DNA of 64,000 bases from Minisyncoccota bacterium (GCA_041649495.1 JBAZMZ010000001.1:623-64622), one strand, 5' to 3'; shown: positions 123 through 50,190, counted from the stretch's first letter. A program made the numbers and translations. The notes: generated from the sequence alone by a model not told the origin.

Positions 123-1640
123 ATGAAAACTTCTTTAAATTATAAAAACTTCTTTAAGGGTAAGAAGATTACTGTCCATGGTTTGGGACTATTGGGGCGG
201 GGGATTGGTGATGTGATTTTTTTGGCGCAACAGGGGGCGGATTTGACGGTGACGGATTTAAAGACAGAAGATCAACTTGCTCTCTCGTTAGCTCAAATTA
301 AAAAAGCTTTAAAACCAGAAGTTTTTAAAAAAATAAAATTCGTGCTCGGTGAACATAAATTAGAAAACTTCAGGAATAAAGATTTTATTCTTAAGGCAGC
401 CGGGGTGCCGATTGATTCAGAATTTATTGAGGAAGCAAAGAAAAATAAAATTCCGATTAAAATGGACGCTTCGTGGCTTGCAGAGTTGGTCGAGGGGGCT
501 TGCCCTGAGCGAAGTCGAAGGGTGAAAATTATTGGCGTCACGGGTACGCGGGGCAAATCAACCGTCACTCACTTGATTTATGAAATTTTAAAGGCTTGGC
601 GACCCGAGGGGAATCCTTTGGGGTCAGTTCAAGGGTTCCCCTCGGGTCGCGTGTTTCTCGGTGGCAACGTGAGAGGTTTAGCCACCTTGCCCTTGCTTAA
701 AAAAGTAAAAAAAGGGGATATCGTGGTCATGGAATTAGATTCTTGGCAATTGCAAGGTTTCGCTGACTCAAAAATCAGCCCAAATATTTCGGTCTTTACG
801 AATTTAATGGTGGATCATCAAAATTATTATGGTTCGACTTCGCTCACCACAAGTTCCAATCCGATGAATCTTTATTTTGCCGATAAAGCAAATATCTATC
901 GCTGGCAAAAAAAGGGAGATTATTTGGTGGCGGGGGGTGAGGTGGCGAAAAGAATTAAATTAGATCTTAAAAAATCAAGGCACGCCCTTGATTGTTTGGG
1001 GCAATTAATTGTGCCGGACGCTGAAATTATCCCAAAAAGTTGGAAGATAAAATTATTGGGTGAACATAATTTATTAAATATTGCTTACGCCGTGACGGTG
1101 GCTAGAATTTTGGATGTGCCAGAAAAAATAATTAAACAAGTCGTTGAGAATTATGCTGGCGTGCCCGGACGCCTGGAATTTTTGCGTGAAGTTAAGGGGG
1201 TAAAATATTATAACGATACCACGGCCACCACGCCAGACGGAGTAATCGCGGCGCTTAAGGCCTTGAACCTGCCCCGACGACGGTCATCGGGAAATTTCCC
1301 GATGACCGTCGTCGGGGCAGGAGCTAAAATTATTCTAATTGGCGGAGGGCGAGATAAAGAGTTAGATTATAAAAAGTACGCGCCGGTGGTCAAAAAATCA
1401 GTTAAAGCCCTCGCCCTATTTCAAGGTACCGCGACTGATAAAATAATTAAAATATTAAATAAAACTAAATTTCCAGTTCAAGTTTTTGATAACATGCCAT
1501 CGGCGTTTACTTGGGCTAATTCGTTTGCTCAAAAAGGGGACATCGTCCTTCTTTCTCCCGGTGCGGCCAGTTTTGGCGTCTTTAAAAATGAGTTTGACCG
1601 CGGGGATCAATTTGTAAATTTGGTTAAAAAAATAAAATAA
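123..1640 (+). CDS. murD: UDP-N-acetylmuramoylalanine--D-glutamate ligase (MurD), carrying in-frame insertions
   Basis: N-terminal Rossmann motif GLGLLGRGIG and the Mur ligase P-loop GVTGTRGKST. It sits immediately upstream of murC. Confidence 0.85.
   Translation: MKTSLNYKNFFKGKKITVHGLGLLGRGIGDVIFLAQQGADLTVTDLKTEDQLALSLAQIKKALKPEVFKKIKFVLGEHKLENFRNKDFILKAAGVPIDSEFIEEAKKNKIPIKMDASWLAELVEGACPERSRRVKIIGVTGTRGKSTVTHLIYEILKAWRPEGNPLGSVQGFPSGRVFLGGNVRGLATLPLLKKVKKGDIVVMELDSWQLQGFADSKISPNISVFTNLMVDHQNYYGSTSLTTSSNPMNLYFADKANIYRWQKKGDYLVAGGEVAKRIKLDLKKSRHALDCLGQLIVPDAEIIPKSWKIKLLGEHNLLNIAYAVTVARILDVPEKIIKQVVENYAGVPGRLEFLREVKGVKYYNDTTATTPDGVIAALKALNLPRRRSSGNFPMTVVGAGAKIILIGGGRDKELDYKKYAPVVKKSVKALALFQGTATDKIIKILNKTKFPVQVFDNMPSAFTWANSFAQKGDIVLLSPGAASFGVFKNEFDRGDQFVNLVKKIK
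600..649. repeat. palindromic element family A, copy in murD (in frame, encodes EGNPLGSVQGFPSG)
   Basis: cgacccgaggggaa...ttcccctcgggtcg: 14-bp perfect inverted arms around the cctttggggtcagttcaagg core. Confidence 0.85.
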
Positions 1641-3253: not shown

Positions 3254-3255
3254 CA

Positions 3256-4476: not shown

Positions 4477-6180
4477 ATGGCCGAGACGATAATTAATTAT
4501 TTTGCTCAGACTGATTTTCGCGGGAAGAGAATTCCGTTTGGGATTAAGGGTGATGATCGAGCGCGCCATGTTTATGTGATTGGTAAGACGGGCATGGGCA
4601 AGTCTTGTTTGTTGGAGAATATGGCGGTGCAGGATATCCAAAATGGTGAGGGGATGGCCTTCATCGATCCACACGGCAAATCGGCTGAATTATTACTTGA
4701 TTTTGTGCCACCCGAACGACTCAAAGATGTTATATATTTCGCACCCTTTGATCTTGAGCACCCAATTTCTTTTAATGTGATGGAAGATGTGGGTCCGGAC
4801 CAGCGTCACTTGGTGGCGAATGGTTTAATGTCCTCGTTTAAGAAAATTTGGCCAGATGTTTGGTCGAGCCGAATGGAGTACATTTTAAATAATTGTTTAC
4901 TGGCACTTTTAGAATATCCTGACTCGACTCTTTTGGGGGTGAATCGTTTGTTGTCAGACAAAGACTATCGCAAACAAGTGGTTGATAATATTACCGACCC
5001 GTCGGTGCGATCGTTTTGGCTTGATGAATTTGCCAAGTATAACGAACGCTATATGCAGGAGGCGGGCGACGCGATTAAGAACAAGATCGGGCAATTTACG
5101 GCTAACCCCTTGATTCGTAATATTATCGGTCAAACCAAGTCCTCATTTGATTTGCGCGAGGCGATGGACAGCAAAAAGATTTTGATTGTTAACCTGTCAA
5201 AAGGGCAATTGGGTGAGCAAAACGCCAATCTCTTGGGCGGTATTTTAATTACCAAGATTTATTTGGCGGCGATGTCGCGAGCGGGCGTGGGGGCGGGGAT
5301 TTCGAAATTGCCCTACTTTTATGTTTTTATCGATGAGTTTCAATCTTTTGTCAACGATTCGTTTGCTGATATTTTGTCCGAGGCGCGCAAATATAAATTA
5401 AGTTTGACGATTGCTCATCAATATATTGAACAGATGCCAGAGGAGGTGCGGAACGCGGTTTTTGGCAACATTGGCACGACCATTGCTTTTCGGGTCGGCC
5501 CATTTGATGCCGAAGTGTTGGAGAAAATCTTTTTACCGACCTTTACGCAAGAAGACCTCGTCAATTTGGGTTTTGCTCAAATTTATTTAACGCTGATGAT
5601 TAACGGGGTTGGCTCGCCACCTTTTTCGGCCGTGACCTTGCCCCCAATTGTGTCGACGACCGCGTCGATTAAAGATCAAATCATCAAGTCTTCGCAGAAA
5701 AATTATGCTAGTCCGCGGGAATTGGTGGAGACAAAAATTACAACTTGGTTTGAACCGGTGGTTAAATTTACCGCTAAATCAGAGCCGAAAAAATCAGAAA
5801 ACTCAAAAACACCTCAAACTTTTCAATCGAGTTTGCCTCTCGCAAAGACGACTAAGGCGGTTTCAAAACCCGTCGCGACTCCGGTTACGAAATCAGCGCC
5901 CAAACCATTAGCTAAGCCGGCGCCTCCCAAAGCTTTTTCGTTGAGCATCTTGAAAAATAAAGCGCAAAGTTCTAACCCCTCGACTCCGCTCGGGGCAAGT
6001 AAAAATAAAGACGAGCTCAAAGCCTTTTTGGGCGAAATTATGGCCAACAAAAAACCCAAAACTGTTTCAGCTTCCTCAACTTCTAATCCGTCAGTCAGAT
6101 CAAATTCTCAACCTGACCCCAAAAAAGAAATTCCCCAAGATGTCCTCGAAGATCTATTAGCCGTTAAGCCGGGAGAGTAA
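4477..6180 (+). CDS. HerA/DUF87-like (T4SS coupling-protein-like) P-loop NTPase with a Pro/Lys/Ser-rich low-complexity C-terminal tail
   Basis: Walker A HVYVIGKTGMGKS, FIDPHGK and Walker B FYVFIDEFQ. The last ~170 aa are low complexity. Confidence 0.6.
   Translation: MAETIINYFAQTDFRGKRIPFGIKGDDRARHVYVIGKTGMGKSCLLENMAVQDIQNGEGMAFIDPHGKSAELLLDFVPPERLKDVIYFAPFDLEHPISFNVMEDVGPDQRHLVANGLMSSFKKIWPDVWSSRMEYILNNCLLALLEYPDSTLLGVNRLLSDKDYRKQVVDNITDPSVRSFWLDEFAKYNERYMQEAGDAIKNKIGQFTANPLIRNIIGQTKSSFDLREAMDSKKILIVNLSKGQLGEQNANLLGGILITKIYLAAMSRAGVGAGISKLPYFYVFIDEFQSFVNDSFADILSEARKYKLSLTIAHQYIEQMPEEVRNAVFGNIGTTIAFRVGPFDAEVLEKIFLPTFTQEDLVNLGFAQIYLTLMINGVGSPPFSAVTLPPIVSTTASIKDQIIKSSQKNYASPRELVETKITTWFEPVVKFTAKSEPKKSENSKTPQTFQSSLPLAKTTKAVSKPVATPVTKSAPKPLAKPAPPKAFSLSILKNKAQSSNPSTPLGASKNKDELKAFLGEIMANKKPKTVSASSTSNPSVRSNSQPDPKKEIPQDVLEDLLAVKPGE
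5974..5999. repeat. repeat family B, copy in the HerA-like ATPase tail (NPSTPLGA)
   Basis: aacccctcgactccgctcggggcaag. Confidence 0.7.
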
Positions 6181-6960
6181 TTTAGCTAACTCTAGGCGGA
6201 CAAAGCGACGAATTAAAGCGTAAGAAAAACCCGGATAAAACTCTCGGTATTTTTTGACTAGGTTTAAATTTTCCATCATTAATCTAAGTCGATCGGTGTT
6301 TGAAATATTCGAACCGTGCTGACGATAATTGAGATCGTAAGAGGGAAGATTATGGAGTTTGCCTTTTTGACCCAATTTGAGCCATAAATCATAGTCCTCA
6401 ATGCCGTTTAGGTTCGGATGATAACCATTTACAGACCGGGCAATATCTCGTCGATAAAGGATGCTCGAGTGGGCGAAAGGATTTTTTGCTAAAATTTGTA
6501 CCCTAATTTGCCCGTCTTGTTCTGGGTTGAGATAGCGTTTTCGTTCTTGATTATTCTGGTCGATAACAATTACTCCTGTACCAACGGCGACATAATTGGG
6601 GTGATCGTCGAGAAAATCAATTTGTTTTTTTAGTTTATCTGGGCTGTTCCAAATATCATCACTATCCAAAATAGCGACATATTTGCCTCGAGACTCTTGA
6701 AGGGCACGATTTCGCGAGGCACAAATGCCTAAATTTCTTTCATTTTTGAAATAACGAATTCTTGCATCAGTAAGATATTTTTTAACAATTTCTTCTGTTT
6801 GGTCGGTTGAGCCATCGTCGACAATAATTATTTCCCAATGGGTAAAGCTTTGGGCTAAGACGCTTTCAATTGTTTGAGCAATAAAATTGGCTCGATTATA
6901 AGTAATAATATTAACACTGACTTTTATTTGGGGCTCTAATTTCGTGGTAATTTGGTCCAT
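6157..6960 (-). CDS. family 2 glycosyltransferase
   Basis: VSVNIITYNRANF...IIIVDDGSTD...DSDD motifs. Confidence 0.8.
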   Translation of the reverse strand: MDQITTKLEPQIKVSVNIITYNRANFIAQTIESVLAQSFTHWEIIIVDDGSTDQTEEIVKKYLTDARIRYFKNERNLGICASRNRALQESRGKYVAILDSDDIWNSPDKLKKQIDFLDDHPNYVAVGTGVIVIDQNNQERKRYLNPEQDGQIRVQILAKNPFAHSSILYRRDIARSVNGYHPNLNGIEDYDLWLKLGQKGKLHNLPSYDLNYRQHGSNISNTDRLRLMMENLNLVKKYREFYPGFSYALIRRFVRLELAKLLSRLNG

Positions 6961-7826
6961 GTTGGGGGGATAATATCATCTATTTTGATACTACCATTAT
7001 TAAACCAGATGTCTGGCGCAATAACAATCTTGTTGGGATTTTCGTTGAGCCAAGCGCCCCACCAAGAGAAACTTGAATTAGCGATAATATTATGTTTACA
7101 CTTACTCATCAAAACTAGTTCCTGGTAATCAGTCAGTTCTTTCTCTTGTTTATTTTCCGAAACATAAGTTACTAGATGGCTATTAAATTTCATATTAGCC
7201 TTAACCCAATCAACATCATCACTAAATACAAAGAAAGCTGGATTCTCAATCTTTGTTTCAATTAACTCAATGGCTTTTTTGTAATAATTTGCCGAACAGA
7301 TTCCTAACCCTTTTAAATTAGTTGTCAAAAGGTAGTCGGTCCTTCGGACGGCAAGCGAGACAGAGTTGGTAGTTGTTATCTGATTCAATAGTTCAGGATT
7401 TGTTTGGTCAAGAGGGGTCTTGAGAGTAAAATCTTTTTGGATGACTTCTTTGATATCAGAAAAGTACTTGAAACTTTGCCAATAGCCGTCTAAATAGATA
7501 TCTTTACCCTGGGCCATCTCTTTTTTTATTCTGCTAATTACCCGAGGTTCCCAGCCGGTGTGGTGAACTCGTAGGATTTTAAATTTGAAACCGCGCCAGG
7601 CTTTGGATGCCAAACCAAGAGAGTATTTATTTTTTTTAATTTCTTGGTGGTTAGCAAAGTTCTCTTCGATAGCAAAAACTTTTAATCCGTAAGCGCGAAA
7701 ATGCTCTCGATCGTAGCCAGTTCGATCTAATTTTAGCCCCGTCTTTTGGGTGACAGCTAATTCTCGTCCCAAAGCATATTGAAACATTTGATTGCCGAGC
7801 CCGCCTTTTAAATTGACGGTAATCAT
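6936..7826 (-). CDS. GT11 alpha-1,2-fucosyltransferase-like glycosyltransferase
   Basis: N-terminal GGLGNQMFQYA signature of the GT11 fucosyltransferases. Confidence 0.75.
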   Translation of the reverse strand: MITVNLKGGLGNQMFQYALGRELAVTQKTGLKLDRTGYDREHFRAYGLKVFAIEENFANHQEIKKNKYSLGLASKAWRGFKFKILRVHHTGWEPRVISRIKKEMAQGKDIYLDGYWQSFKYFSDIKEVIQKDFTLKTPLDQTNPELLNQITTTNSVSLAVRRTDYLLTTNLKGLGICSANYYKKAIELIETKIENPAFFVFSDDVDWVKANMKFNSHLVTYVSENKQEKELTDYQELVLMSKCKHNIIANSSFSWWGAWLNENPNKIVIAPDIWFNNGSIKIDDIIPPTWTKLPRN

Positions 7827-8584
7827 TTTTCCGTCGATATTTTAAAGCTGATAATAATCTCCTCATTTTTATTAAGTACTTTTTTCCAATTTGGTTTTAA
7901 ATCTTGGTGAAAAAAATAATCTCCATTACCCATTATCCTCTGTATTTTAAAGCCGGTCTGCTTGGTAATTAATTCAATTTGCCAATAGGGCAGGGGATTA
8001 ATATGATATTCAAAACAGTCGGGGGTGAACCAGGGAAAATATCCTGTTAACCAAAATTTTAAACGACTTCTCGTTGATAAAATATTTGGCGTACTAATAA
8101 TAAAAAGCCCGTCTGGTTTGAGCATTCTTCTTGCTTGTCGGAAAAATTCCCAGGGATTTTCTAGGTGCTCGATGATTTCTTGGCCGACAATTATATCGAA
8201 GGATTGCTCGAGAAAAGGGTAAGGAAAATGATTCAAATCCCAGATTGAATTTTTTTTGTCAACTTTGGTTGACGCAATATCTACATTAGAGACGTTATAA
8301 CCCAAAAGTTCAAAAATCGTCGAGACCTGGCCAGTTCCGCCCCCTAGATTAAGAAGTTTCTTTTTTTGGTTGTTTATGCTCAACTCTCTCGTGATTGTCT
8401 CTATGACACCGGGTGAGGCATGACAATAAAGGGAATCAACTAAATATCTGCGCCAACCATAGAAGAAACTTCTCTCTTCGTGTCGAAATTGTTTTTTTAA
8501 ATTGACAACTAGATCATCGGTCGGTGCTTCAATGTTTAAAAGGCCTGTTCTCTTAAGCCAATTTTTAATAAGATTATTTTTCAT
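7823..8584 (-). CDS. class I SAM-dependent methyltransferase
   Basis: LLNLGGGTGQ glycine-rich SAM motif followed by an acidic residue and a DIIV motif. Confidence 0.6.
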   Translation of the reverse strand: MKNNLIKNWLKRTGLLNIEAPTDDLVVNLKKQFRHEERSFFYGWRRYLVDSLYCHASPGVIETITRELSINNQKKKLLNLGGGTGQVSTIFELLGYNVSNVDIASTKVDKKNSIWDLNHFPYPFLEQSFDIIVGQEIIEHLENPWEFFRQARRMLKPDGLFIISTPNILSTRSRLKFWLTGYFPWFTPDCFEYHINPLPYWQIELITKQTGFKIQRIMGNGDYFFHQDLKPNWKKVLNKNEEIIISFKISTEK

Positions 8585-9317
8585 GTTGTTTTGTTGCTAT
8601 TATAACATAGTCAAGAGTTAGCCAACGTTTATTGGTTAGCCAGTCAAGGAATAGTGAAATAATTTGAATTGGCCCCAAAATAAAAATAGACAGGGTGATT
8701 TTTAGGATGGTGTTTCTAAAAGCTAAGCTTTCAAAGACAAAGGCGGAAAATATCTGTCCTAAAACACCAAAGATTCCAGTTGTTTGAGTCAAGCTGGAGA
8801 TTTCGAGACCGTTTTGAGTTAGTAATTGTTCTAACCCATATCGAGTAAAACGGTAAAAATCATAAGGAATCTCATGTTCGTTCCAAACAAAGGGTGTCGT
8901 GATAAAAACTTGCCCATCTGTTTTTAGGGTCCGAGCCATTTCGTTTAGTAATTTTGCTGGTTCGGGGGTGTGTTCTAGAACTTGAGTACACAGAATTACT
9001 TCAAATTGATTGTCTGGGAAGGGGATATGCACGCCGTCAAAAAATTTATCAACCGTTTTCTCTTGATCGGTATGTCCACCCCCTTCAATATCTATTCCTT
9101 GGTAAGAAGAAGATAGAAAAAGGTTCTTATACGGCTTATTGCCACAGCCGACATCTAATATTTTAGAATTATGGGGGACTACTCTAGAGAATTTTCTGAT
9201 CTGGCAATAAAGGGCTCTTCGGCTAATAAAATACGGATTTAAAAAAATTGAGTACCAACTGGGTCGAAAAAAGATGGCCTCAATAATCTGCTTCTTGTTT
9301 TTTCTAAGATCGATCAT
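8574..9317 (-). CDS. class I SAM-dependent methyltransferase with a C-terminal TM segment
   Basis: ILDVGCGNKPY motif I and FEVILCTQVLEH motif. Confidence 0.7.
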   Translation of the reverse strand: MIDLRKNKKQIIEAIFFRPSWYSIFLNPYFISRRALYCQIRKFSRVVPHNSKILDVGCGNKPYKNLFLSSSYQGIDIEGGGHTDQEKTVDKFFDGVHIPFPDNQFEVILCTQVLEHTPEPAKLLNEMARTLKTDGQVFITTPFVWNEHEIPYDFYRFTRYGLEQLLTQNGLEISSLTQTTGIFGVLGQIFSAFVFESLAFRNTILKITLSIFILGPIQIISLFLDWLTNKRWLTLDYVIIATKQHEK

Positions 9318-10231
9318 AAGTTTTTGGTTACTATATCTAAGAAGGGGTTATTATATAATAGGTATTTTAATTTCTCCACACGGGTAAACTGACTGAAACC
9401 GTGGTTAAAATTTGGATCAATTTGAGCCACGCAAGTTATTGATTTTCTTATTGCCTCGATATAAGGTCGGTAAAAGGTTTTTCTTTTGGTGGCTGGAATA
9501 AAGTAGCCCTTAGCCTCAACAAATTTATCTTGATTGAGAAGTTTGAAAGCATGAAAATGATAAAAAATTACCTTTGGGGGTATCGAAGTTCGTATATTCC
9601 AGGGAGCTAGGCCAGCTCCAGGGTGTTGGATGACCGATAGGTTGGGGAATCTCTCGGGCCAATCGTTTAAATATAGCTGATCGCCGTAAAGACCATTTTC
9701 TAATCGATCGAAACACCAATCAATTACTTTATTAGCCCACCATTTAACAGCTTCTTGGCCGACCTTGTCATTTTTGAAATAAACAAAACCGACATTAAAA
9801 CGACCAACCTTTTGCGTAAATTCTTGTTGTTTTTTGGGAAAACGGTGCTCAATAATCCCAATTGAATTATTGCCAATTTCGACAAAGATTGGCTCTGGAT
9901 TATCAAAGAAATAGAGATCAGCGTCGAGGTAAGTAATACTTTCAACTTCTTCTTTTTTCAGCATAAAATGGCATAAATTAGCTGTGCAAGTCCACGCATA
10001 TTCGGCTGGGTTGCGAGAGGGTCTGACTCTTAATAGTCGTTCGTCTTCAAACTCAGACATCTTTATCAGCTTTATTTTTGGGAGATCCATCTTGGAAAGC
10101 AAGTCATATGTTTCTTCCTCTAAACAGAGAATCCAGAGAGTAAAATTAGGACAATGCTGCTTAAGTGAAAAATACAAAGCTAGGCCTCGATAAAGATAAT
10201 TCTTGTCAAATAGAGTGCAAAAATTACACAT
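9314..10231 (-). CDS. putative nucleotide-diphospho-sugar transferase (GT8-like, DxD)
   Basis: YLDADLYFF DxD-like motif in a glycan-cluster context. Confidence 0.4.
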   Translation of the reverse strand: MCNFCTLFDKNYLYRGLALYFSLKQHCPNFTLWILCLEEETYDLLSKMDLPKIKLIKMSEFEDERLLRVRPSRNPAEYAWTCTANLCHFMLKKEEVESITYLDADLYFFDNPEPIFVEIGNNSIGIIEHRFPKKQQEFTQKVGRFNVGFVYFKNDKVGQEAVKWWANKVIDWCFDRLENGLYGDQLYLNDWPERFPNLSVIQHPGAGLAPWNIRTSIPPKVIFYHFHAFKLLNQDKFVEAKGYFIPATKRKTFYRPYIEAIRKSITCVAQIDPNFNHGFSQFTRVEKLKYLLYNNPFLDIVTKNL

Positions 10232-11033
10232 GTTTTTTTAGTTTAAACAGGTAGCCCTTAAATTCTCCCCGAAAATTATGGCGCGCAATCTTTCTTTCTG
10301 GAGTTTCAAAATCTATTATCAACTCATATCGGGGGGCCAAAAAGTCTAGTAATTTTTGTTCACTGAAAAACCAACATGGGTAGCTGGCAGAGTAAATTTG
10401 TGGCGGGACTTTTTGGAGAGTAATAAAATCCTTGTTCCGTTTAGTTACACTTGTTCGGTCAAAGATTATAAATTCTAAATTTTTTGACAAAACTTCAGTC
10501 AAAATATCATACGGTTTTTCTATATACTGCAAAGAGCTGGAAAAAACTATTGTTGTTGGGTTAGTTTTTTTGATGCAATCTGAAATATTTTTGTAGAAAT
10601 TAAGTTGTTTATTAGAAAAATTTTCCTGCCCACATTTAACAAAGTTCGGTTGTTCAACAACGTTCCAGTGGATAGACAACAAATGTTTTATAAAAGGAAG
10701 GTGTTGGAAATAAATGCTCCCAAGGGAACCACCAAAATCAATCAGATTTAATCTCTGGCTATTTTGCCCGGCTACAAAGAGGAGGTTTGCTAGTAATGGC
10801 CACCGGGGTTCTTTTTTGTAAAACAAAACGGAATCTCGTTCATAAGTTGCCTCACCGGTCGTGACCTTAAGTAGGGCATTTTTAACTCTAGACAATATCA
10901 ATTTGTCGTTATAGCCGGTACTTTTTAATGCCACTTCAGACCAGTTTTGGTAAGGTCCAAACCAGCCATATCTTTGGCTGAGAATAAACCCCCTGATCTT
11001 TTTTGGGGTAACTTTTTTAAGAAAATTTTTCAT
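10224..11033 (-). CDS. TIGR04325-like methyltransferase of polysaccharide clusters
   Basis: YGWFGPYQNWSEV...IDFGGSLGS resembles the LIC12133/TIGR04325 family. Confidence 0.5.
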   Translation of the reverse strand: MKNFLKKVTPKKIRGFILSQRYGWFGPYQNWSEVALKSTGYNDKLILSRVKNALLKVTTGEATYERDSVLFYKKEPRWPLLANLLFVAGQNSQRLNLIDFGGSLGSIYFQHLPFIKHLLSIHWNVVEQPNFVKCGQENFSNKQLNFYKNISDCIKKTNPTTIVFSSSLQYIEKPYDILTEVLSKNLEFIIFDRTSVTKRNKDFITLQKVPPQIYSASYPCWFFSEQKLLDFLAPRYELIIDFETPERKIARHNFRGEFKGYLFKLKKHV

Positions 11034-11770
11034 ATTATTTTTGCAGCACTGTCAGTTGTTCGATGGCCTTTGGCCCTTTCGAAGTAAGAATTGAATATCT
11101 TAAGGGCATCTTTGGGGGAAATTAAGTTATTCCTAACGCAATACCAATTTAAATAATTTTTCTCATAGACATTTGACCTAAAGGTTGCCCTAGCTTTTTT
11201 CACATTAAGAGCTCCAAGGGCGCTGAGGCGATGATTCCCATCAATAACCAAATATCTTACCTGGTTGTCTGTTTTGATGAGGCGGACTAACTCTATATAG
11301 TTATTATTTTTTTGGGGCTCATAACCGTTTTTTTTGATCAAATAATAGGCTCTTTCTAGCCAAACGAATTCTTCTTCGAGCCTAAAATTCAAGACACCTT
11401 TTGCTGAAAAGTGGGTCATAATGTCTGGGCAGTCGTTAGGGTCATCGAGCCAACAGCGGTCTTTTTCCATAAAAACACTTTTATTGTATTTAATCCATGG
11501 ATAAATCCAGAGGGGGACGTAATTTTCCAAAGTTATCCCTAGTGCTTGCCCTAGGTTTTTGGGTCTGTAATATTTTATAAAATCTATGAATTTTTCTTGT
11601 CGCTTGTCTTTTTCTATACCGTCATGCAGCTCGAGCGTATAGGTTTGATATGGATTATAATCATTGCCCCCATAACGGAAGCCTCCATAATGAACACACT
11701 CGTTTATCGATACTTCAACAGCAAAAGGAGGAATTATTTTTTTTAGGATCGATTTTATGAATTGTGGCAT
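11030..11770 (-). CDS. hypothetical protein with a ParB/sulfiredoxin-like DGxHR motif
   Basis: YLVIDGNHRLSALGAL. Confidence 0.3.
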   Translation of the reverse strand: MPQFIKSILKKIIPPFAVEVSINECVHYGGFRYGGNDYNPYQTYTLELHDGIEKDKRQEKFIDFIKYYRPKNLGQALGITLENYVPLWIYPWIKYNKSVFMEKDRCWLDDPNDCPDIMTHFSAKGVLNFRLEEEFVWLERAYYLIKKNGYEPQKNNNYIELVRLIKTDNQVRYLVIDGNHRLSALGALNVKKARATFRSNVYEKNYLNWYCVRNNLISPKDALKIFNSYFERAKGHRTTDSAAKII

Positions 11771-12435
11771 ACTATGTAAATTCTCTCCCTATTTAAGGGG
11801 TCATCTTTACCTAAAACAAAATTATCTTTGATTTTTAGGTTGTGTATTTTTAATATCTCGCTTATCTCTTCTTTTTTATGAATAAAGTTTTTTATATCTC
11901 CCCAGGTTTTAATCTCATTTTTTCCTAACGCGAGATTCTTAATCTTACGTATTTTTCTTATAAGTCGGGAAGCAAGGGGGAGTTTTTTTTCTTGTCTCGG
12001 TTCAAATGTTTGAATAATTAATTCTTTTCGAAAAATACGACCAAATTCAGAAATCATCTTGTTGAGATCTTTTGAATTTAATAGATGAACTAATCTCCAG
12101 CAGATGACATAATCGATTGAATTGCCAGGAAAAGGCAGGGACGTGACATTGCCCAAGAATAGCTTTATTTTTTCATTATTTTTAAATTTATCTCTTACTT
12201 TTGCTAACATATCCGCAGAGATATCTGCTCCCATGACCGTCATATTTTTTTCCAGGAAGAAATCTACAAACCGACCAGTGCCAATGGGGGCATCAAGAAT
12301 GGTCGTCCCCATATCTAACCGAGAGAAGTAATCTCTTACAAAATCTTGCTCCCTTTCCCAAATCGGTTCGACAACACGGTCCCTCTCGTAATTATCGGCG
12401 ATATCCCCATAATAAGCTTTATTAGCGTTTATCAT
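11755..12435 (-). CDS. class I SAM-dependent methyltransferase
   Basis: ILDAPIGTGRF motif I and IDYVICWRLVHL. Confidence 0.7.
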   Translation of the reverse strand: MINANKAYYGDIADNYERDRVVEPIWEREQDFVRDYFSRLDMGTTILDAPIGTGRFVDFFLEKNMTVMGADISADMLAKVRDKFKNNEKIKLFLGNVTSLPFPGNSIDYVICWRLVHLLNSKDLNKMISEFGRIFRKELIIQTFEPRQEKKLPLASRLIRKIRKIKNLALGKNEIKTWGDIKNFIHKKEEISEILKIHNLKIKDNFVLGKDDPLNRERIYIVCHNS

Positions 12436-12436
12436 T

Positions 12437-13366
12437 TTATTTTAATTTAGAAATTATTCGGCGCCAAATTTTTATTAAAAAAATTACTGGCCATGAATGA
12501 TTAAATTCAGAATGCATGATTGAAAAAATTATCTTATCATATTCTTTATCAACAACAAGGTTGCCATTATTTTTTAGGGGGAAATTAAGCTCTTGTCTTT
12601 CTAGCTTTTCGATTTGGGGCATTAAGGTCTTTGTATGGGTTGCCTCGGGGCCAAAGCCAATATTTGCTATTAAGTTTCTAGAAGGGAAAATAGCCAAACC
12701 ATTATAAAATGTTCTGAAAAAGGCCCATTGATATTCCCATTTTTTCTCTCTAATTCCAATGTTAAACAAATAGCGACGAGCCCAGTATTGTTTATTGTTG
12801 CCAATTTTTTCTTTTATTTTTTTCCTAGTCTCTCGGTCTTTCCATTGTTTCATTTCTGGATCGAGGAGCTCCCATGCTCGACGCCATGTTGCCCATCCCC
12901 AGACACCGCCTAGTGCCGAGAAGTAATAGTCTTGTTGGTCAGCTTTCCATTCCCCAGCCCAATTCATTCCGCTGACCATCATTATTTTGTTGTCATTCTT
13001 GTATTTTTCCAGCATTTGTTCACAGAAAAAGAAGAAAGATTGATTAGGTAAACAATCGTCCTCTATGATAATTGCTCGATCATATTTGGCTAAAATTTGA
13101 TTGATGCCGGAATAGACCCTCTCACTACAACCTAAATTAGTGCTAGAAAAGTCTTTAATAAATTCACAATCCCAGTCAATATCGGCGACTACGGCTTGGG
13201 ACTGTTCACATAACTCTTTTTCTCCGGGTTTATCTGGCCGAGGCCCGTCGGCTACAATATAAAGGTATTTTGGTTTGACTCTCTTGATCTCCTCAAAAAC
13301 TCGGATAGCCCGATCTGGCCGATTGAAGATGACAAATAAAATTGGGGTATTTAAAACCAGGGCCAT
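12437..13366 (-). CDS. putative glycosyltransferase (GnT-I-like EDD motif)
   Basis: PILFVIFNRPD...IIEDDCLP motifs. Confidence 0.45.
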   Translation of the reverse strand: MALVLNTPILFVIFNRPDRAIRVFEEIKRVKPKYLYIVADGPRPDKPGEKELCEQSQAVVADIDWDCEFIKDFSSTNLGCSERVYSGINQILAKYDRAIIIEDDCLPNQSFFFFCEQMLEKYKNDNKIMMVSGMNWAGEWKADQQDYYFSALGGVWGWATWRRAWELLDPEMKQWKDRETRKKIKEKIGNNKQYWARRYLFNIGIREKKWEYQWAFFRTFYNGLAIFPSRNLIANIGFGPEATHTKTLMPQIEKLERQELNFPLKNNGNLVVDKEYDKIIFSIMHSEFNHSWPVIFLIKIWRRIISKLK

Positions 13367-13527
13367 AACTTAATTTTAATTGTAACTTAAAATCTCGCAT
13401 GTTTCAAGCTGAGTTTTGCTCTAAAAATGCTTGATTTTTTGATAGATAAACAAAATTATGCAGACTCTTTATTTGGAAGATTAAAGACATGACAATTAGA
13501 TAATGAATCAATAGTTTGCAATTATCG

Positions 13528-13576
13528 CAAAAAAATATAAGCAAAGAGCCTGGCAATGATTTCCACTGCCAGGCTC
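13528..13576 (-). terminator. rho-independent terminator downstream of the radical SAM gene
   Basis: Perfect 10-bp stem (gagcctggca/tgccaggctc) followed by a U-run on the minus strand. Confidence 0.6.
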
Positions 13577-13635
13577 GAAAAGAACGGGATGCAATTTCCT
13601 CTGCTTCTGCACAGAATGGAAGATGGCAGATCCCC

Positions 13636-15069
13636 TTACCCTATGCTGTGCTCGATGCTTTGTACCACGGTCTGTGGGTAAGGGATACCCAACTCTTCCC
13701 GCACTTTCTGTTCGACTTGGTCTCGCCGGGCGACGACTTCCTCCGCCGACAAGAAGTCGGTGAAGACATTTGCTTGGTATTCCCCGGGGCGTCCTTTGTA
13801 GAAGCTCCCGGAGAACGCTAGCCAATCGATCTCCCGGCTATAAAGTCGGTCGCCATTGGGACGGGTGTAGACCCACACTCCTGCTCTCGTCGGGTCTGGG
13901 ACAGCTTCGTCATGGTAGGACGTTCCTGGGTACACCGTAACGATTGTGGCGTCAAAGTCGTCCACGCCATTTTCAAGCAGCCACTTCTGTGTCGCTTGGA
14001 TCGTTGCCGACGATTCACCTGGGTGGCCAATTGACATCAGGGCCTTGACCTTTAGTTGATGAGCCCGAGCGATTTCCACGCATCGGGTGTTCTCCTCCGC
14101 TGTTGATCGCTTGCTCATGTTCTGGAGCATTCTGTCCGACCCTGACTCAAAACCCGCCAGGATCCAGCGGAAACCGGCTTCGTACATCAGCCCAGCTTGT
14201 TCATTCGTGAAAAGTTGGGACTTCACGAATCCGCGAAGACGGAATTCTGCACCGAGACGCTCTTGTAGTCCGATGATTCCCCTTAGTAATTTGGGGAACA
14301 TCGGGCTCACATTGAGCTCGTCGTCAAAGAACATGAAGCCTTTGACGCCGTAAGTCTGGTGCAATTGCTCTATCTCGGCCAAGATGCTTCCGATGGGGCG
14401 ACTACGCATTCGCCGAAACGAAGGCGCATGACGCCCGCCACAGAATCCACAACCAAACGGGCAGCCGAGTTGCGAGACGAGGCTTAAGGCCTCTTCTCCC
14501 TCGATTCGGTAGTGATAACTACCGATATCGATGAGTTCTCTGTCGGGCCAAGGGAGACGGGCTAGGTCCTCTCTTGTTAAGAACAGGGGGCTTTTGGGAT
14601 CGTCGGCACTGATCAGTTTGGGCGGGTTGGGCCCTAATGCCACGAAGATGGCCTTTTCACCATCCCCGGCGACCAGGACGTCAACCAAGTCCTTTAGCTG
14701 ACGCAGGGCCACTGTCGCTCGGCCGGGAGATTTTTCTCTTCGCGCTGAGGCGTTGATCAGTGTCACGTGAGCTCCACCCAAAATAATCCGGACCGTTGGC
14801 TGTTCGTGGCGAATAATTGCCACGATTTTGGCCACGGCCGGCATCTGTGGTGTTGTGGCCGTGATACCAACGGTCACGGGTTTTGTCTCCCGCAAATACT
14901 CACAGAGGACTTCTTCATAATTGACGGTGCCGGACAGATCCAACACCTCAACCCGAAGACCCTTCTCCTCCATTGCTGCTGCCACCTTTAGTGCCCCCAG
15001 ACTGACGAATACTCGCTGGTCAGACAGGAAAGCGGAAGGGGTCATGATTAGGCACACTTTTTTATCCAA
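13636..15069 (-). CDS. B12-binding domain radical SAM protein (class B radical SAM, putative methyltransferase); distinctly GC-rich
   Basis: CPFGCGFC (CxxxCxxC) cluster after an N-terminal B12-binding-like domain. GC content is far above the flanks. Confidence 0.8.
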   Translation of the reverse strand: MDKKVCLIMTPSAFLSDQRVFVSLGALKVAAAMEEKGLRVEVLDLSGTVNYEEVLCEYLRETKPVTVGITATTPQMPAVAKIVAIIRHEQPTVRIILGGAHVTLINASARREKSPGRATVALRQLKDLVDVLVAGDGEKAIFVALGPNPPKLISADDPKSPLFLTREDLARLPWPDRELIDIGSYHYRIEGEEALSLVSQLGCPFGCGFCGGRHAPSFRRMRSRPIGSILAEIEQLHQTYGVKGFMFFDDELNVSPMFPKLLRGIIGLQERLGAEFRLRGFVKSQLFTNEQAGLMYEAGFRWILAGFESGSDRMLQNMSKRSTAEENTRCVEIARAHQLKVKALMSIGHPGESSATIQATQKWLLENGVDDFDATIVTVYPGTSYHDEAVPDPTRAGVWVYTRPNGDRLYSREIDWLAFSGSFYKGRPGEYQANVFTDFLSAEEVVARRDQVEQKVREELGIPYPQTVVQSIEHSIG

Positions 15070-15134
15070 GACGTTTCTCCTTCTGCTTTCAAGCAGGGTT
15101 GTGTGAATGACAAAGTTTCCTTTTAAAAAATACT

Positions 15135-16127
15135 CTAAATAGAGCTATTTGTCAAATTCAAATTTTTTGTAAATATTTTCTTAAATCGGTGTTTAATCCT
15201 TAAATAATAACCCAAAAGACTATCCCTTGGGACATAAATTGGCGATGGGAACTTAATTTGCAATGGGGGATGTGTTCTCCCAAAGGTTTTTTCGGGGTTA
15301 GGTATTAAAATATCACCTATTTCTATTAGTTCACTCAGTATATTCCTGGTAAAATCGCGACAATTAAATGTACAGATGAAATCAAGAGCTTTTTTGTTAA
15401 AAACATAATAATGTTCAACAAAAATATCCCTCCAATTATAGTTCATTTTACCGTCATTGTACTCTCTCAAATAATAAGATTCATTAAAATTCACACGATG
15501 TAAATACTCCACCTCAGGGCAGGTATAGGCACTCAATCCGGCACATAAAAAGCGCCAAGCAAAGCCCTGAGTGTCAAAACCGTGTAATGTAGGGTACCCT
15601 CCAGTTTTAGCAAAAGCTTCTTTTGTATACATAAAATTGACACAGAGGGGAAGAAAGCCTTTGTTTTTTGAGAGTAAAGATTCAAACGGTATTTTTTTGT
15701 TGAGGTAAGGGGAGGTTTCTATGTGGTGGATATTTTCGATATTTTTACCGCTAAACTTTATTGATCGATGGATGGTTACTCCGTCACATTCTTTTTCTTT
15801 CAAAAATTTTACCATTTTTCCTAATGCTCCTTTGGGTAACAAGTCATCACTGTCCAAACAAAAAATAATATTTCCGGTAGATTTTTGGACGGCAGTATTT
15901 CTTGTTGCTCCGCCACCTAAATTTTTTTCGTGTTGGTAATGGCCAAGATTGGGGTATTTTCTAGCCAATTTCTCAATAACTTCTTGGGTTTTGTCTGTTG
16001 AAGCATCGTCAACCAAGATCAATTCAAATGGAATTGTCAGTCCTTGCTGACAGGCCGAAACCACGGCTTCTTCGAGCGTGTCTTGGCAATTATAACAGGG
16101 GATTATTATAGATAATTTATCGTTCAT
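15135..16127 (-). CDS. family 2 glycosyltransferase
   Basis: LSIIIPCYNCQDTL...LILVDDASTD...DSDD. Confidence 0.8.
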   Translation of the reverse strand: MNDKLSIIIPCYNCQDTLEEAVVSACQQGLTIPFELILVDDASTDKTQEVIEKLARKYPNLGHYQHEKNLGGGATRNTAVQKSTGNIIFCLDSDDLLPKGALGKMVKFLKEKECDGVTIHRSIKFSGKNIENIHHIETSPYLNKKIPFESLLSKNKGFLPLCVNFMYTKEAFAKTGGYPTLHGFDTQGFAWRFLCAGLSAYTCPEVEYLHRVNFNESYYLREYNDGKMNYNWRDIFVEHYYVFNKKALDFICTFNCRDFTRNILSELIEIGDILIPNPEKTFGRTHPPLQIKFPSPIYVPRDSLLGYYLRIKHRFKKIFTKNLNLTNSSI

Positions 16128-16131
16128 CTAG

Positions 16132-36151: not shown

Positions 36152-36640
36152 ATGACTATTTACTTGGGTACTGACCATGCGGGGTTTGAATTGAAGGAGC
36201 AGATTAAAGATTATCTGAAGGGAAAGGGTTTGGCTGTGCAAGACCAAGGCGCTTTTACTTTGGATCCCGAAGATGATTACACCGATTATGTGAAAATTGT
36301 GGCCAAAATGGTTCAGGGTGATTCGGAGAGTCGGGGGATAATTTTGGGTGGGTCTGGTCAAGGTGAGGCGATTTGTGCTAACCGGTTTAAGGGCGTGCGG
36401 GCGGCGCTTTATTATGGTCCCTCGGCTTCACTCGGGACAAGTGGTCCGCTCGATATTATTAAACTTTCGCGTGAACATAATGACACTAATGTTTTGTCGC
36501 TGGGTGCGCGGTTTTTGAATTTTGAGCAAGCCAAAGAAGTGATTGATTTGTGGTTGGCCACACCGTTTTCTCAAGACCCTCGTCATGTTCGGCGGATTAA
36601 AGAGATTGATGACGATGAATCAATGGGGCGAGTTATCTAA
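36152..36640 (+). CDS. rpiB: ribose-5-phosphate isomerase B
   Basis: IYLGTDHAGFELK; RpiB/LacAB family. Confidence 0.85.
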   Translation: MTIYLGTDHAGFELKEQIKDYLKGKGLAVQDQGAFTLDPEDDYTDYVKIVAKMVQGDSESRGIILGGSGQGEAICANRFKGVRAALYYGPSASLGTSGPLDIIKLSREHNDTNVLSLGARFLNFEQAKEVIDLWLATPFSQDPRHVRRIKEIDDDESMGRVI

Positions 36641-36674: not shown

Positions 36675-37337
36675 ATGGAAATAATTCCCTCGATCATTGC
36701 GGATAATTTTGAAGAAGTCAAAACTCGATTGATTCGCGTCGAGGGTTTAGTGGACTGGGTCGAATTGGATATTGCCGATGGTGTTTTTGTACCGAGTTTT
36801 ACTTGGCCAATGTTGTTAGGGCAAGCCCCCGAGGATTTAAAAGAGGTTGACGGCAAAACCAAAATCAGTGCCCATTTAATGGTTGAACACCCCGAAACTT
36901 TGATTGACGACCCCTCAACTCCGTTCGGGGCAAGTTGGCAGGAGGTAGTTGATCGCCTTATTATTCATTACGAATCGACGGACGAGATTGAAAAAATAAT
37001 CGAAACCAAAGGCGCGCATATTAGTCTTGGTTTGGCGCTTGAATTGGCCACGCCAGTTGAAAAAATTTATCATTATTTAGATAGAGTAAAATTAGTTCAA
37101 TTAATGAGTATCGAACGCGTTGGTTACTCGGGTGAAAAATTTGACGAACGAGTCTTTGAAAAAATTAAAACGCTTAAAACCAATTGGCCAGATGTCAAAA
37201 TAATTATTGATGGCGGGATTGATCTGGAAATTGGCCGGCGCCTCAAAGAAGTTGGTGCCGATGGTCTCGTGATTGGCTCCCGCATTTGGCAGGCGCCCAA
37301 TATCGAAGAAACAATTAAAAGTTTCCAAAATTTGTGA
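36675..37337 (+). CDS. rpe: ribulose-phosphate 3-epimerase, carrying an in-frame repeat insertion
   Basis: IIPSIIADNF...LDIADGVFVP...IIDGGI motifs. Confidence 0.75.
   Translation: MEIIPSIIADNFEEVKTRLIRVEGLVDWVELDIADGVFVPSFTWPMLLGQAPEDLKEVDGKTKISAHLMVEHPETLIDDPSTPFGASWQEVVDRLIIHYESTDEIEKIIETKGAHISLGLALELATPVEKIYHYLDRVKLVQLMSIERVGYSGEKFDERVFEKIKTLKTNWPDVKIIIDGGIDLEIGRRLKEVGADGLVIGSRIWQAPNIEETIKSFQNL
36910..36935. repeat. repeat family B, copy in rpe (DPSTPFGA)
   Basis: gacccctcaactccgttcggggcaag. Confidence 0.65.
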
Positions 37338-46726: not shown

Positions 46727-47158
46727 ATGGTTTATTATATTTTAGCGGTCGTGGCGCTGGTTTCGCTGGCCATTCTCTCCTTCCTTTTTCGGCGCCAAAT
46801 CATGATCAATCGAGCCAAAAATCTCGATTATAATGAGTTGAATCATTACGGGGTGGCGAATGTGATGATTGATTACTTGGCTTTTAAGATTGTGCGTTTT
46901 TGCCAGTCAGGGTTAAGGAAACTTTATCTTTTCTTTCTTCATTTTGTGAAAAATTCGATGGCGACGGCGCGTTACGCTATTGTTAAAACCGAAAGACGCT
47001 TTAACCAAATTGTTGATTCGGCGCCTAGCCCCGAAGAAATTCATAAAACCGACAAAGTCTCTTTTTTCTTGAAAGAGATTAAAGATCACAAAGATGCCAC
47101 TATGGCTGAAATCCAAATCATGGCCGATGAGGCGAAAAAGGTCGAAAGTGAAAACTGA
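46727..47158 (+). CDS. hypothetical membrane protein
   Basis: N-terminal TM helix; no domain identified. Confidence 0.4.
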   Translation: MVYYILAVVALVSLAILSFLFRRQIMINRAKNLDYNELNHYGVANVMIDYLAFKIVRFCQSGLRKLYLFFLHFVKNSMATARYAIVKTERRFNQIVDSAPSPEEIHKTDKVSFFLKEIKDHKDATMAEIQIMADEAKKVESEN

Positions 47159-47230
47159 GCCAGCACGAGGATTCGAACCCCGGACCTTCGCTTTACAAAA
47201 GCGTTGCTCTACCAACTGAGCTATGCTGGC
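47158..47230 (-). tRNA. tRNA-Thr (anticodon UGU)
   Basis: 73-nt cloverleaf: acceptor GCCAGCA/UGCUGGC, D arm GCUC-AGUUGGUA-GAGC, anticodon loop UUUGUAA, T arm CGGGG-UUCGAAU-CCUCG. CCA is not encoded. Confidence 0.9.
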
Positions 47231-48159: not shown

Positions 48160-50190
48160 ATGCTTGTCTCTCATAATTGGCTCCAAAAATATTTTGACGC
48201 AAAATTGCCTAAGGCGAGCGTTTTAGCGGATAAAATAATTTTTCACGCTTTTGAAGTCGAAGATATTGTCGAAAAAGATGGTGATTGCTTAATGGATGTT
48301 AAAGTATTGCCCGATCGCGCTCATGATTGCTTGTGTCATTATGGCCTGGCTAAAGAAATTTCGGCGCTATTTGATTTGAGGCTTAAATCTGCCGTCACCA
48401 AGGGGAACCCTTTGGGAGCAGTTCAAGGGTTTCCCTTGGTGACGGTTCGGAATCTTAATATTAAAATTGAGGATGAAAAACTTTGTCGGCGATACATCGG
48501 GAGAATGGTTGAGAATGTTGCCGTCAAAAATTCAGCTGATTGGCTTAAAAAAGATTTAGAAAAATTAGATCAGCGTTCGATTTTTAATATTGTTGATTTG
48601 GCTAATTACGTGATGTTCGATGTGGGGCAACCCTTGCACGCGTTTGACGCTGATAAAGTTCAGGGAGGAATCACGGTGCGGTTGGCGAAGACGGGAGAAA
48701 AAATCACGACTCTTGATAACCAAGAAGTTAATTTGGATGAAAGCATTTTAATCATTGCTGATGATGAGGGCCCGCTAGCGATCGCGGGGATTAAGGGGGG
48801 CAAAAAAGCCGAAGTGACCAATGAGACGAAAAACTTGATTTTAGAATCAGCCAATTTTGATCCAGTTAATATCCGCCAGACGGCGCAAAAAATTGGTATT
48901 AGAACCGATGCTTCAAAAAGATTTGAAAATGAAATTTCGACTGAAGTGGCGGGTTATGCCATGGATTTACTCACTGATTTAATAATCAAAGAGGCCGGGA
49001 CAAGCGAAACAAAAGTCGGGGAAAAAGTTGACGAGTATAAAATTAAAAATATTCCCGCGCCGATTGAATTTGCCATTAAAGAATTTAGTGAAAGATTGGG
49101 AGTAGACATTGCGCCTGAAGAGTCTATTAAAATTCTTGAGAGCTTGGGTATTGAAGTTGAAGTGAGCACCAAGGGGAACCCTTTGGGAGCAGTTCAAGGG
49201 TTTCCCTTGGTGCGCTTGACCCCTCCGGTTGAGAGATTAGACCTTCAAGCGAAAGAAAATTATGTGGAAGAAGTGGGGCGAATCTATGGGTATGACAAAA
49301 TTGCCGGCGTGGTGAGTTTGGGAGCCGAGCTTCCAAACTCCCGAAGCTCGGCTCCCAAACTCTCGGGAGCCGAAGCTGAAGCGGAGAAAAGATTTAATCT
49401 CGCCAATAAAATCCGGGTGATTTTGAAGGGGGAAGGTTTTACTGAAGTTTATGGCTATACTTTTACCAACAAGGGCGAAGTCGAAGTGGCGAATCCGTTG
49501 GCGAGTGATAAAAAGTTTTTGCGCACTAATTTAACCGATTGGCTGATCGAAAAAATTAAATTTAATTTGCCTTATGTTTTATTTGATAACGAAGCGGTTA
49601 AGATTTTTGAAATCGGGAAAGTTTTTGTCGGCGGAAAAGAGGAGACTCGATTGGGGTTGGGGATTGGCTACAAAAAGAAAATTAAAGGTCAGGATGCACA
49701 GAAGGAAGTTGAGGGGACTTTGGTTAAGTTGGCGGAGCGGTTCGAGATTCAATCTCTGGAGGCTTTGAGATTGGATCTCGAACCGCCAACGGTTGACGAG
49801 GTTTCCGCGGTTCAAGAATTTAATTTTGATAAGTTATCCGAAGAAATTAAAGAGGCAAAAGAAGTTAAGTTGTCAGACCTAATCAACAAAAACGCTAGTT
49901 ATAAACTTGTCTCGCCTTACCCGCGCATTATCCGTGACGTTGCCGTTTGGGTGCCCGAGAATACTCAAACCGATGAAGTGGCAAAAATTATAAAAGAATC
50001 AGCAGGGGAGCTTTGTGTGGCGGGGCCGATTCTTTTTGACGAATTTGCAAAGGAAGGGAGAAAGTCGCTGGCCTTTCGCCTCGTCTTTCAATCTTACACC
50101 AAAACCCTCTCCGATGATGAAACTAACGCCCCAATGGCTCAAATTATTAAAAATCTCGAAAAACAAGCTGGTTTTGAAGTGAGGAAATAA
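48160..50190 (+). CDS. pheT: phenylalanine--tRNA ligase beta subunit (reduced form), carrying three in-frame inverted-repeat insertions
   Basis: B3/B4 and B5 domains; C-terminal FDEF anticodon-binding-like domain. Confidence 0.8.
   Translation: MLVSHNWLQKYFDAKLPKASVLADKIIFHAFEVEDIVEKDGDCLMDVKVLPDRAHDCLCHYGLAKEISALFDLRLKSAVTKGNPLGAVQGFPLVTVRNLNIKIEDEKLCRRYIGRMVENVAVKNSADWLKKDLEKLDQRSIFNIVDLANYVMFDVGQPLHAFDADKVQGGITVRLAKTGEKITTLDNQEVNLDESILIIADDEGPLAIAGIKGGKKAEVTNETKNLILESANFDPVNIRQTAQKIGIRTDASKRFENEISTEVAGYAMDLLTDLIIKEAGTSETKVGEKVDEYKIKNIPAPIEFAIKEFSERLGVDIAPEESIKILESLGIEVEVSTKGNPLGAVQGFPLVRLTPPVERLDLQAKENYVEEVGRIYGYDKIAGVVSLGAELPNSRSSAPKLSGAEAEAEKRFNLANKIRVILKGEGFTEVYGYTFTNKGEVEVANPLASDKKFLRTNLTDWLIEKIKFNLPYVLFDNEAVKIFEIGKVFVGGKEETRLGLGIGYKKKIKGQDAQKEVEGTLVKLAERFEIQSLEALRLDLEPPTVDEVSAVQEFNFDKLSEEIKEAKEVKLSDLINKNASYKLVSPYPRIIRDVAVWVPENTQTDEVAKIIKESAGELCVAGPILFDEFAKEGRKSLAFRLVFQSYTKTLSDDETNAPMAQIIKNLEKQAGFEVRK
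48392..48445. repeat. palindromic element family A, copy 1 in pheT
   Basis: ccgtcaccaaggggaaccc tttgggagcagttcaa gggtttcccttggtgacgg (19-bp arms, one mismatch). Confidence 0.85.
49166..49213. repeat. palindromic element family A, copy 2 in pheT
   Basis: gcaccaaggggaaccc tttgggagcagttcaa gggtttcccttggtgc. Confidence 0.85.
49321..49383. repeat. third in-frame inverted-repeat insertion in pheT (ggagccgagcttc...gaagctcggctcc plus a partial third arm)
   Basis: Perfect 13-bp inverted repeat separated by 9 nt, then gggagccgaagctgaagc; encodes GAELPNSRSSAPKLSGAEAEAEK. Confidence 0.7.

Follow-up and report, generated by a model that had tools for sequence, protein, structure and literature searches.

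The Rickettsia palindromic elements (RPE-1 to RPE-10), as described in the portions of PMC10969869 available to us, are palindromic repeats of ~150 bp that lie in frame within housekeeping genes of a reduced genome. Repetitive extragenic palindromic (REP) elements, according to the excerpted account in PMC3733652, measure 20–40 bp, have one end marked by the tetranucleotide GTAG or CGTC, and are mobilised by RAYT. Inverted repeats may also change in place, and in the accessible sections of PMC8604942, PMC13100816 and PMC8794818 template switching at such repeats is described as homogenising the arms, expanding them and inverting the spacer. Here, we analysed a 64,000-nt stretch of DNA (hereafter the window; GCA_041649495.1, JBAZMZ010000001.1:623–64622) from a metagenome-assembled genome (MAG) of Candidatus Paceibacterota (Paceibacteria), a small-genome member of the Candidate Phyla Radiation (CPR), in which a very short palindromic element recurs in frame within murD, gatB and, twice, pheT. 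The element had been singled out in an earlier reading of the sequence (hereafter the original prediction), which supposed it to be undescribed in such bacteria; consistent with this, no description of such elements for CPR/Patescibacteria was found in the searchable literature, outside which most subscription journals lie.

Four in-frame copies of one hairpin unit

The 20-nt core of the element, CCTTTGGGAGCAGTTCAAGG, was matched at 615–634, 34091–34110, 48409–48428 and 49180–49199, all on the + strand, with two, one, no and no mismatches, respectively. Shuffled sequences yielded a mean of 0.02 matches, and none reached four. The four palindromic copies that had been predicted at these places were confirmed. 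Arithmetic on the starts of the open reading frames (ORFs) placed the first base of all four cores at codon position 1 within long ORFs, which were identified as MurD, GatB and PheT from precomputed Pfam domains and source names. The start of gatB was set at the ATG given in Table 1 because exactly that product is on record, while the TTG-start version was unmatched. The claim of a repeat family residing in frame in unrelated housekeeping genes therefore stands, with all copies in phase 0.

The unit common to the copies comprises 42 nt (14 codons) and reads CCRAGG, a variable block of 5 nt, CCTT, a loop of 12 nt, AAGG, the block's complement and, last, CCYTGG. The shared sequence spans 42–46 nt and the whole hairpin 48–54 nt. 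Outside the shared unit, one to six extra complementary base pairs differ from copy to copy, and the arms run on into copy-specific flanks (GCGAC/GTCGC, GC/GC, CCGTCA/TGACGG and GCA/TGC), in agreement with the host-specific extensions originally reported. The stems contain 17–20 Watson-Crick pairs and no more than a single wobble or mismatch; the arms are palindromic as predicted, but longer than the 11–19 bp assigned to them. Folding energies ranged from −34.6 to −43.6 kcal/mol, corresponding to z-scores of −4.7 to −7.3 against shuffled sequences. Over the 46-nt family alignment, copies 3 and 4 are identical (46/46), and copies 2 and 1 match the reference copy at 87% and 78%, respectively. 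The encoded peptide follows the consensus (K/E)GNPLG(A/S)VQGFP in MurD, GatB and the two PheT sites of the window, with peptide flanks that mirror each other. Five of the six frames of the unit are open in the window sequence, and one has a stop.

The positions of the encoded segments were inspected in AlphaFold models of MurD (overall pLDDT 86.8, pTM 0.87) and PheT (pLDDT 85.6). The segment of copy 1 was predicted as coil between helix 145–159 and strand 177–181, with pLDDT <50 at residues 163–170. In PheT, copy 3 was likewise predicted as coil, with pLDDT <50 at 80–89, and copy 4 as coil or turn between strands 332–336 and 350–354, with low confidence in the 341–350 block. Segments encoded by other hairpins in the same proteins (MurD 383–401; PheT 386–403 and 526–543) were modelled similarly, and further low-confidence stretches were found at inserts (MurD blocks within 381–400; PheT 385–402). 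These models support the view, already put forward in the original prediction, that the inserts occupy loops, here predicted coils between conserved secondary-structure elements.

Table 1. Host genes, copies of the studied family and other repeats in the window, and family copies in related genomes. L and P labels denote loci and proteins of relatives.
Feature	Position	Strand	Description
Host murD	123–1640	+	505 aa, compared with ~447 aa in more distant homologues; copy 1 and at least three other in-frame inserts
Host gatB	33062–34546	+	494 aa; ATG start
Host pheT	48160–50190	+	676 aa; copies 3 and 4 and two other hairpins
Copy 1, murD site A	599–650	+	arms 599–618 / 631–650, loop TGGGGTCAGTTC; residues 160–175, RPEGNPLGSVQGFPSG
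Copy 2, gatB	34076–34125	+	arms 34078–34094 / 34107–34123, loop TGGGAGCCGTTC; residues 340–354, PKGNPLGAVQGFPLG
Copy 3, pheT site 1	48392–48445	+	20 Watson-Crick pairs and one G–T, loop TGGGAGCAGTTC; residues 80–94, TKGNPLGAVQGFPLV
Copy 4, pheT site 2	49166–49213	+	17 Watson-Crick pairs; residues 337–351, TKGNPLGAVQGFPLV
Palindrome, murD site B	1268–1321	+	perfect 54-nt palindrome, 27 + 27 nt, no spacer, LPRRRSSGNFPMTVVGAGA; sequence other than studied family
Hairpin, pheT site 3	49312–49364	+	21-bp stem, SLGAELPNSRSSAPKLSG; sequence other than studied family
Hairpin, pheT	49737–49786	+	19-bp stem, ERFEIQSLEALRLDLEPP
Second repeat family	502–522 (−), 1660–1680, 2506–2526, 5976–5996, 33151–33171, 36911–36931, 50883–50903		looser copies at 822–853 and 36417–36442
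Third small palindromic family	2404–2426, 61251–61273		ACTTGGARGTTTAACYTCCAAGT; inside MurC and RNase HII
Relative, MurD site A (L048/P0002)			same site as window copy 1; core scan
Relatives, MurD site B (L048, L014, L121, L122)			copies of studied family
Relative, PheT site 3 (L079, P0137)			PLGAVQG copy
Relative, RseP-type protease (L104)			family copy; core scan
Relative, 3' end of TatD-like ORF (L108)			element provides the stop codon
Relatives, MurC (L048) and MurD site A (L014)			loops unlike the search pattern; covariance model

Insertion, age and copies in relatives

The best 120 homologues each of MurD, PheT and GatB were aligned, and the family motif was counted on these sets. The insert was lacking in approximately 109/120 MurD, 112/120 PheT and 118/120 GatB sequences, while the motif was present in 11, eight and one of them, respectively, in addition to one diverged GatB case (P0275). 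This absence from most orthologues indicates that the element is an insertion and not ancestral sequence, and it agrees with the lineage-specific nature ascribed to the peptide; among the homologues aligned, the same peptide was not found at the same positions in distant bacteria. That the peptide might nevertheless be an ancestral functional part of these proteins would accord with the MurD-A, PheT-1 and PheT-2 inserts being common to several relatives. It is contradicted, however, by the many orthologues devoid of it, by the same nucleotides encoding it in unrelated proteins, by differing frames at the same site and by the low-confidence coil predicted for it, which leaves this explanation with virtually no probability.

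The sites differ in age. The nearest relatives (host proteins 68–76% identical) also have MurD-A, PheT-1 and PheT-2 occupied, and these insertions are therefore old; compensatory changes separate the stems at these shared sites, and drift is seen in the loops. None of the 33 nearest GatB homologues listed (82–65% identical) has the GatB insert, and a related hairpin is found at this site in P0275/L120, a protein of 64% identity. Judging from these comparisons, only the gatB copy appears young or patchy, and the recent mobility originally deduced from the near-identity of the copies is only partly borne out, three of the four sites being shared with relatives. The gatB copy and its gene are identical across three independent assemblies from different samples, which rules out an assembly artefact. 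As to the identical pheT copies of the window, their orthologues in L117 are unlike each other in stem as well as loop, and we infer for this reason that the window copies were homogenised within the genome, or replaced, rather than representing two fresh insertions. Diverged copies are present at pheT site 2 in L117 and L118. Overall, the inserts at both MurD sites (A and B) and at PheT sites 1–3 differ from relative to relative; hence, the same loops have been used repeatedly.

Exact-core scans returned 89 stretches from genomes, 23 from metagenomes and one from viral contigs, most of them chance matches, with ~8 distinct true copies. Because the loop drifts, such an exact-pattern census undercounts the family. 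An ungapped alignment of 14 copies was used for pairing and covariation scores and for a covariance model, which added the copies with deviating loops in Table 1 and also caught the diverged GatB hairpin of L120. Across the genome, metagenome and viral collections scanned with the core, matches with a long stem came from Paceibacterota and Vogelbacteria records only. The family is consequently not confined to the four window sites, and the hairpin is kept elsewhere. One candidate, a Bacillota repeat (...GGACCTTTGGGGTC(C/A)GTTCAAGGTTCAAGG...), has the 20-nt core in common with the MurD copy, yet its stem is just a short GGACC/GGTCC, and it was treated as unrelated. It is multi-copy in MAGs (Desulfotomaculum UWMA-0229, Ammonifex SURF_55 and others; L004, L010, L023, L034, L035, L039, L046, L057, L072 and L084) and had no Rfam match in the five loci searched.

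All four window copies are intragenic, as are all but one of the related copies. In relatives, the element is read in phase 0 (PLGAVQG), like the window copies, or in phase 1 (SFGGRSR). In the intragenic copies examined, the frame is kept and no stop occurs in the frame used; in a sub-type with an in-frame stop, the gene ends there (the TatD-like ORF). These features bear on the possibility that the insert is left untranslated, either through ribosome bypass—known from T4 gene 60 and the mitochondrial byp elements—or through removal from the mRNA. The presence of very stable hairpins (−35 to −44 kcal/mol) in essential genes would suit such a process. Yet the frame used is free of stops though one of the six frames has one, the unit is a multiple of three, which bypass or splicing would not require, and the stop-bearing sub-type coincides with the end of a gene. 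We therefore regard lack of translation as highly improbable.

A further sub-type is characterised by the stem block ACTCT/AAAGT with the same C–A mismatch and was found in murD-A of L014, murC of L048 and pheT-2 of L117. Its occurrence at three different genes and sites, in two or three genomes, implies that a stem-containing unit was copied between loci.

Upkeep and reshaping of the hairpin

Within the 20-bp stem, 94.6% of the cells of the 14-copy alignment are paired, and 13 of the 20 pairs vary on both sides. The covariation score was 0.623, compared with 0.177 in shuffles and ≤0.19 when the partners were slid. Among the stem pairs of 21 copies, 377 are Watson-Crick, 12 G–T, four A–C and eight other; the G–T versus A–C ratio of 12:4, meant to part RNA-level selection from DNA symmetry, is a small count dominated by single copies. 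The orthologous PheT-1 sites illustrate the pattern: the window has CCGTCACCAAGGGGAACCCTT and L117/L118 have CCGTTGCCAAGGGTAACCCTT, with the 3' arm changed to match, a CA..TG block turned into TG..CA, a G–T pair turned into T–A, and three differing loops. Conversely, the murD-A copy of L122 has a mutated 5' arm and an intact 3' arm, i.e. it decays without compensation.

At MurD site B, L048:2131–2194 and L121:1587–1650 possess identical stems, and the loop is TGGGAGCAGTTC in one case and its exact reverse complement, GAACTGCTCCCA, in the other. A second pair, L014:3128–3191 and L122:1187–1250, has another stem and shows the same loop flip save for two bases. At the protein level, the flip converts FGSSS into LNCSQ. 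A sense orientation of all copies did not hold: the motifs LNCSQR and LNGSQR pointed to flipped loops, which were confirmed in the DNA. Nesting was also observed. In L123:11051–11182, the loop of a PLKA-type MurD hairpin contains 30 nt that resemble the second repeat family (Table 1), whereas its close relative L124:1373–1474 has otherwise the same hairpin without the nested piece.

Strong stem covariation and pairing of this extent would be expected if the hairpin were selected as a functional structure, be it in the mRNA (as a pause, RNase III or protein-binding site) or as a DNA cruciform, with the peptide as a by-product. The retention of the loop core CCTTTGGGRGCNGTTCAAGG between variable stems in several genomes and at several sites, and the repeated occupation of the same protein sites by hairpins of differing sequence, are in keeping with this. 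However, identical stems may enclose the loop in either orientation, which makes an RNA motif of the sense strand unlikely; in addition, the loop drifts freely at the orthologous PheT-1 site, the L122 copy decays uncompensated, close orthologues lack the hairpin, no Rfam family matched, and template switching can give the same covariation in the absence of selection (PMC8794818). Selection for a functional hairpin thus seems unlikely to us. Given that homogenisation, expansion and spacer inversion are its described products, replication template switching may mainly account for the apparent compensatory evolution, an attribution which the pattern fits but does not prove.

In our judgement, the element is probably a selfish copy-and-paste palindrome that selection restricts to tolerant loops, where it is translated, and that template switching then reshapes in place. 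The four copies would represent one family of palindromic DNA elements, very short ones, that is present in a subclade of Paceibacteria and has reached new sites through copy-and-paste duplication. Insertion would not break the gene, since the length of the unit is divisible by three and only one of its six frames is closed, and copies would survive where the 12–14 extra residues fall in a tolerant loop, in which they would be translated. Replication template switching on the hairpin, or arm-to-arm conversion, would subsequently reshape the palindrome, keeping the arms complementary, lengthening them into the flanks and flipping the loop. We infer both the route by which the copies move and their selfishness, i.e. 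the lack of a host function.

Several points weigh against this explanation. Target-site duplications were lacking at the 10 sites inspected, which show direct repeats of only 0–2 bp, the flanks being inverted complements instead. No transposase, RAYT or IS200/IS605 domain was seen among the ORFs scanned or annotated in the loci and in the window, which covers part of the genome. No clean pair of filled and empty sites was found, as the nearest GatB orthologue (82% identical) has eight codons in place of 20, and the insertion boundaries are therefore not fixed. Translation of the insert is suggested by its frame and openness. At some sites, the loop core is conserved across genomes beyond neutral drift, which hints at a possible function, although it has drifted at the orthologous PheT-1 site. 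Finally, the covariation is also compatible with selection on RNA or DNA structure, and the G–T/A–C count is indecisive in this respect.

A more daring proposal, which we consider rather doubtful, is that Paceibacteria harbour a transposase-free system in which template switching alone creates short palindromes, copies them between loci, and lengthens, flips and nests them. If so, hairpin insertion would be a routine source of new surface loops in essential proteins, and it would explain why CPR groups lead in the density of perfect inverted repeats (accessible part of PMC13155455). In a still bolder variant, the conserved loop would be recognised by an as yet unknown enzyme, specific for hairpins, that aims at the tips of existing ones; this would account for the reuse of protein sites and for the nesting in L123.

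If the element is indeed selfish, it extends Rickettsia-type selfish DNA in essential genes to the CPR, a large and little-studied group of small-genome bacteria. Its short, numerous copies and orthologous sites across many MAGs constitute a natural experiment on whether it is selection or template switching that keeps palindromes perfect, on how proteins acquire loops, and on how much stable structure the translation of essential genes tolerates. In practical terms, the inserts inflate protein lengths and make spurious shared motifs between unrelated CPR proteins, and they could mislead alignments, phylogenies and domain calls.

Other repeats in the window and relation to described systems

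The window contains 25 hairpins with at least 11 paired bases, compared with 0–3 in shuffles, many of which are intragenic (MurD, MurC, PheT, GatB, RNase HII and PfkB). Unlike the flanking core genes, a low-GC glycosyltransferase block at 6157–20975 has no intragenic hairpins. This block lies on the − strand, has a GC content of 37–41% and comprises genes of the glycosyltransferase, methyltransferase, radical SAM and flippase types; it may be an island that was acquired more recently. For a second in-frame family of repeats, CCCYTCGACTYCGCTCRGGGC, seven matches were obtained where none was expected; its hosts are MurD, MurC (twice), a TrwB/TraG-like ORF, GatB, Rpe and GyrB, and RpiB contains a looser copy. 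This family encodes peptides such as ACPERSRRV, LSTSLRAG and GSTSLTTS, as well as LRLRSGQ in relatives, and is patchy among orthologues. Counting the studied family and the third small palindromic family of Table 1, the in-frame repeat families of the window number at least three; that further families of repeats and hairpins share these genes, and that the element has other reading frames and a flipped loop, had been missed by the original prediction. The peptide PRRRSS of murD site B recurs at this site in P0009 and P0023, and the palindrome of the window there may belong to yet another family.

The abundance of intragenic window palindromes that are unique invites the question of whether any mobile element is needed at all, each hairpin being made locally by template-switch inverted duplication and likeness arising through convergence or conversion. 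The murD site B palindrome, with 27-bp arms and no spacer, is what inverted duplication predicts, and the loop flips and arm extension described above would be in line with such an origin. What a local origin leaves unexplained is the 42–46 nt shared across unrelated genes and genomes, including the non-palindromic 12-nt loop, and the sub-type with the same internal mismatch at three sites. It is already contradicted for the studied family, though not for the unique palindromes, and as a general account we deem it improbable.

Two perfect intergenic hairpins follow ORFs, at 31019–31068 (23-bp stem) and 54940–54980 (18-bp stem), and are likely terminators; the former scores weakly with the family covariance model because of its CAAGG/CCTTG stem. 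Elsewhere, a 781-aa ORF at 26364–28709 had no Pfam match and includes diverged tandem repeats at 27055–27710, the first copies of which are spaced by 54 nt. The sole Rfam match in the window was a tRNA gene at 47158–47230 (−). On a broader scale, the available passages of a 2026 survey (PMC13155455) report that, among all phyla, perfect inverted repeats are densest in Campbellbacteria and Kaiserbacteria, two CPR groups, and do not link coding insertions to that density.

With REP elements, as portrayed in the excerpts cited at the outset, the family shares short hairpin-forming repeats, a similar size and many copies. It differs in that its copies are intragenic, in that the 14-copy alignment has no conserved GTAG or CGTC tag, and in that no RAYT was seen among the window ORFs scanned or annotated. 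MITEs (miniature transposable elements with inverted repeats), on the other hand, are usually longer, with a body that is not palindromic between terminal inverted repeats, and with direct duplications of the target site. The present unit, by contrast, forms a single hairpin, an inverted repeat from end to end, and lacks target-site duplications; no insertion sequence was seen in the DNA analysed. The features held in common with the ORF-bearing bacterial MITEs (ERIC, Coxiella QMITE and those of Anabaena), within the portions available of PMC10969869, PMC5896051 and PMC2759123, are small size, non-autonomy and in-frame fusion with host genes.

The coding palindromes of Nematomorpha mitochondria resemble the present case in being perfect inverted repeats within translated genes of a small genome, with both function and hairpin kept (PMC6649704). 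There, however, both arms encode conserved protein and the palindromes are unique and up to 284 bp, whereas here an added, dispensable loop is encoded by a dispersed family. Hairpins shaped by template switching display the same multi-base compensatory changes, arm homogenisation and expansion, and spacer inversion (PMC8794818, PMC8604942, PMC7202029 and PMC13100816, in the sections accessible), but change in place leaves the spread of a 42-nt unit to unrelated genes unexplained.

The closest likeness in behaviour is to the RPEs, within what the available portions of their description cover. Both are palindromic repeats that fold into hairpins (with stems of 17–20 bp here) and lie in frame in unrelated genes with a conserved peptide (MurD, GatB and, twice, PheT, joined by MurC and RseP in relatives); in both, the insert fits the fold of the host protein, here as predicted coil of low pLDDT, and several families occur per genome with no transposase of their own (none among the ORFs scanned or annotated here). 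The present family departs from them, as so described, in that its stems vary yet stay complementary, its loops flip and its arms enter the flanks. The Rickettsia-like character advanced by the original prediction therefore holds for behaviour but not for membership of the RPE families, which are set apart by length (~150 bp versus 42–54 nt here) and by lineage, the host being a member of Paceibacterota, a phylum other than that of Rickettsia.

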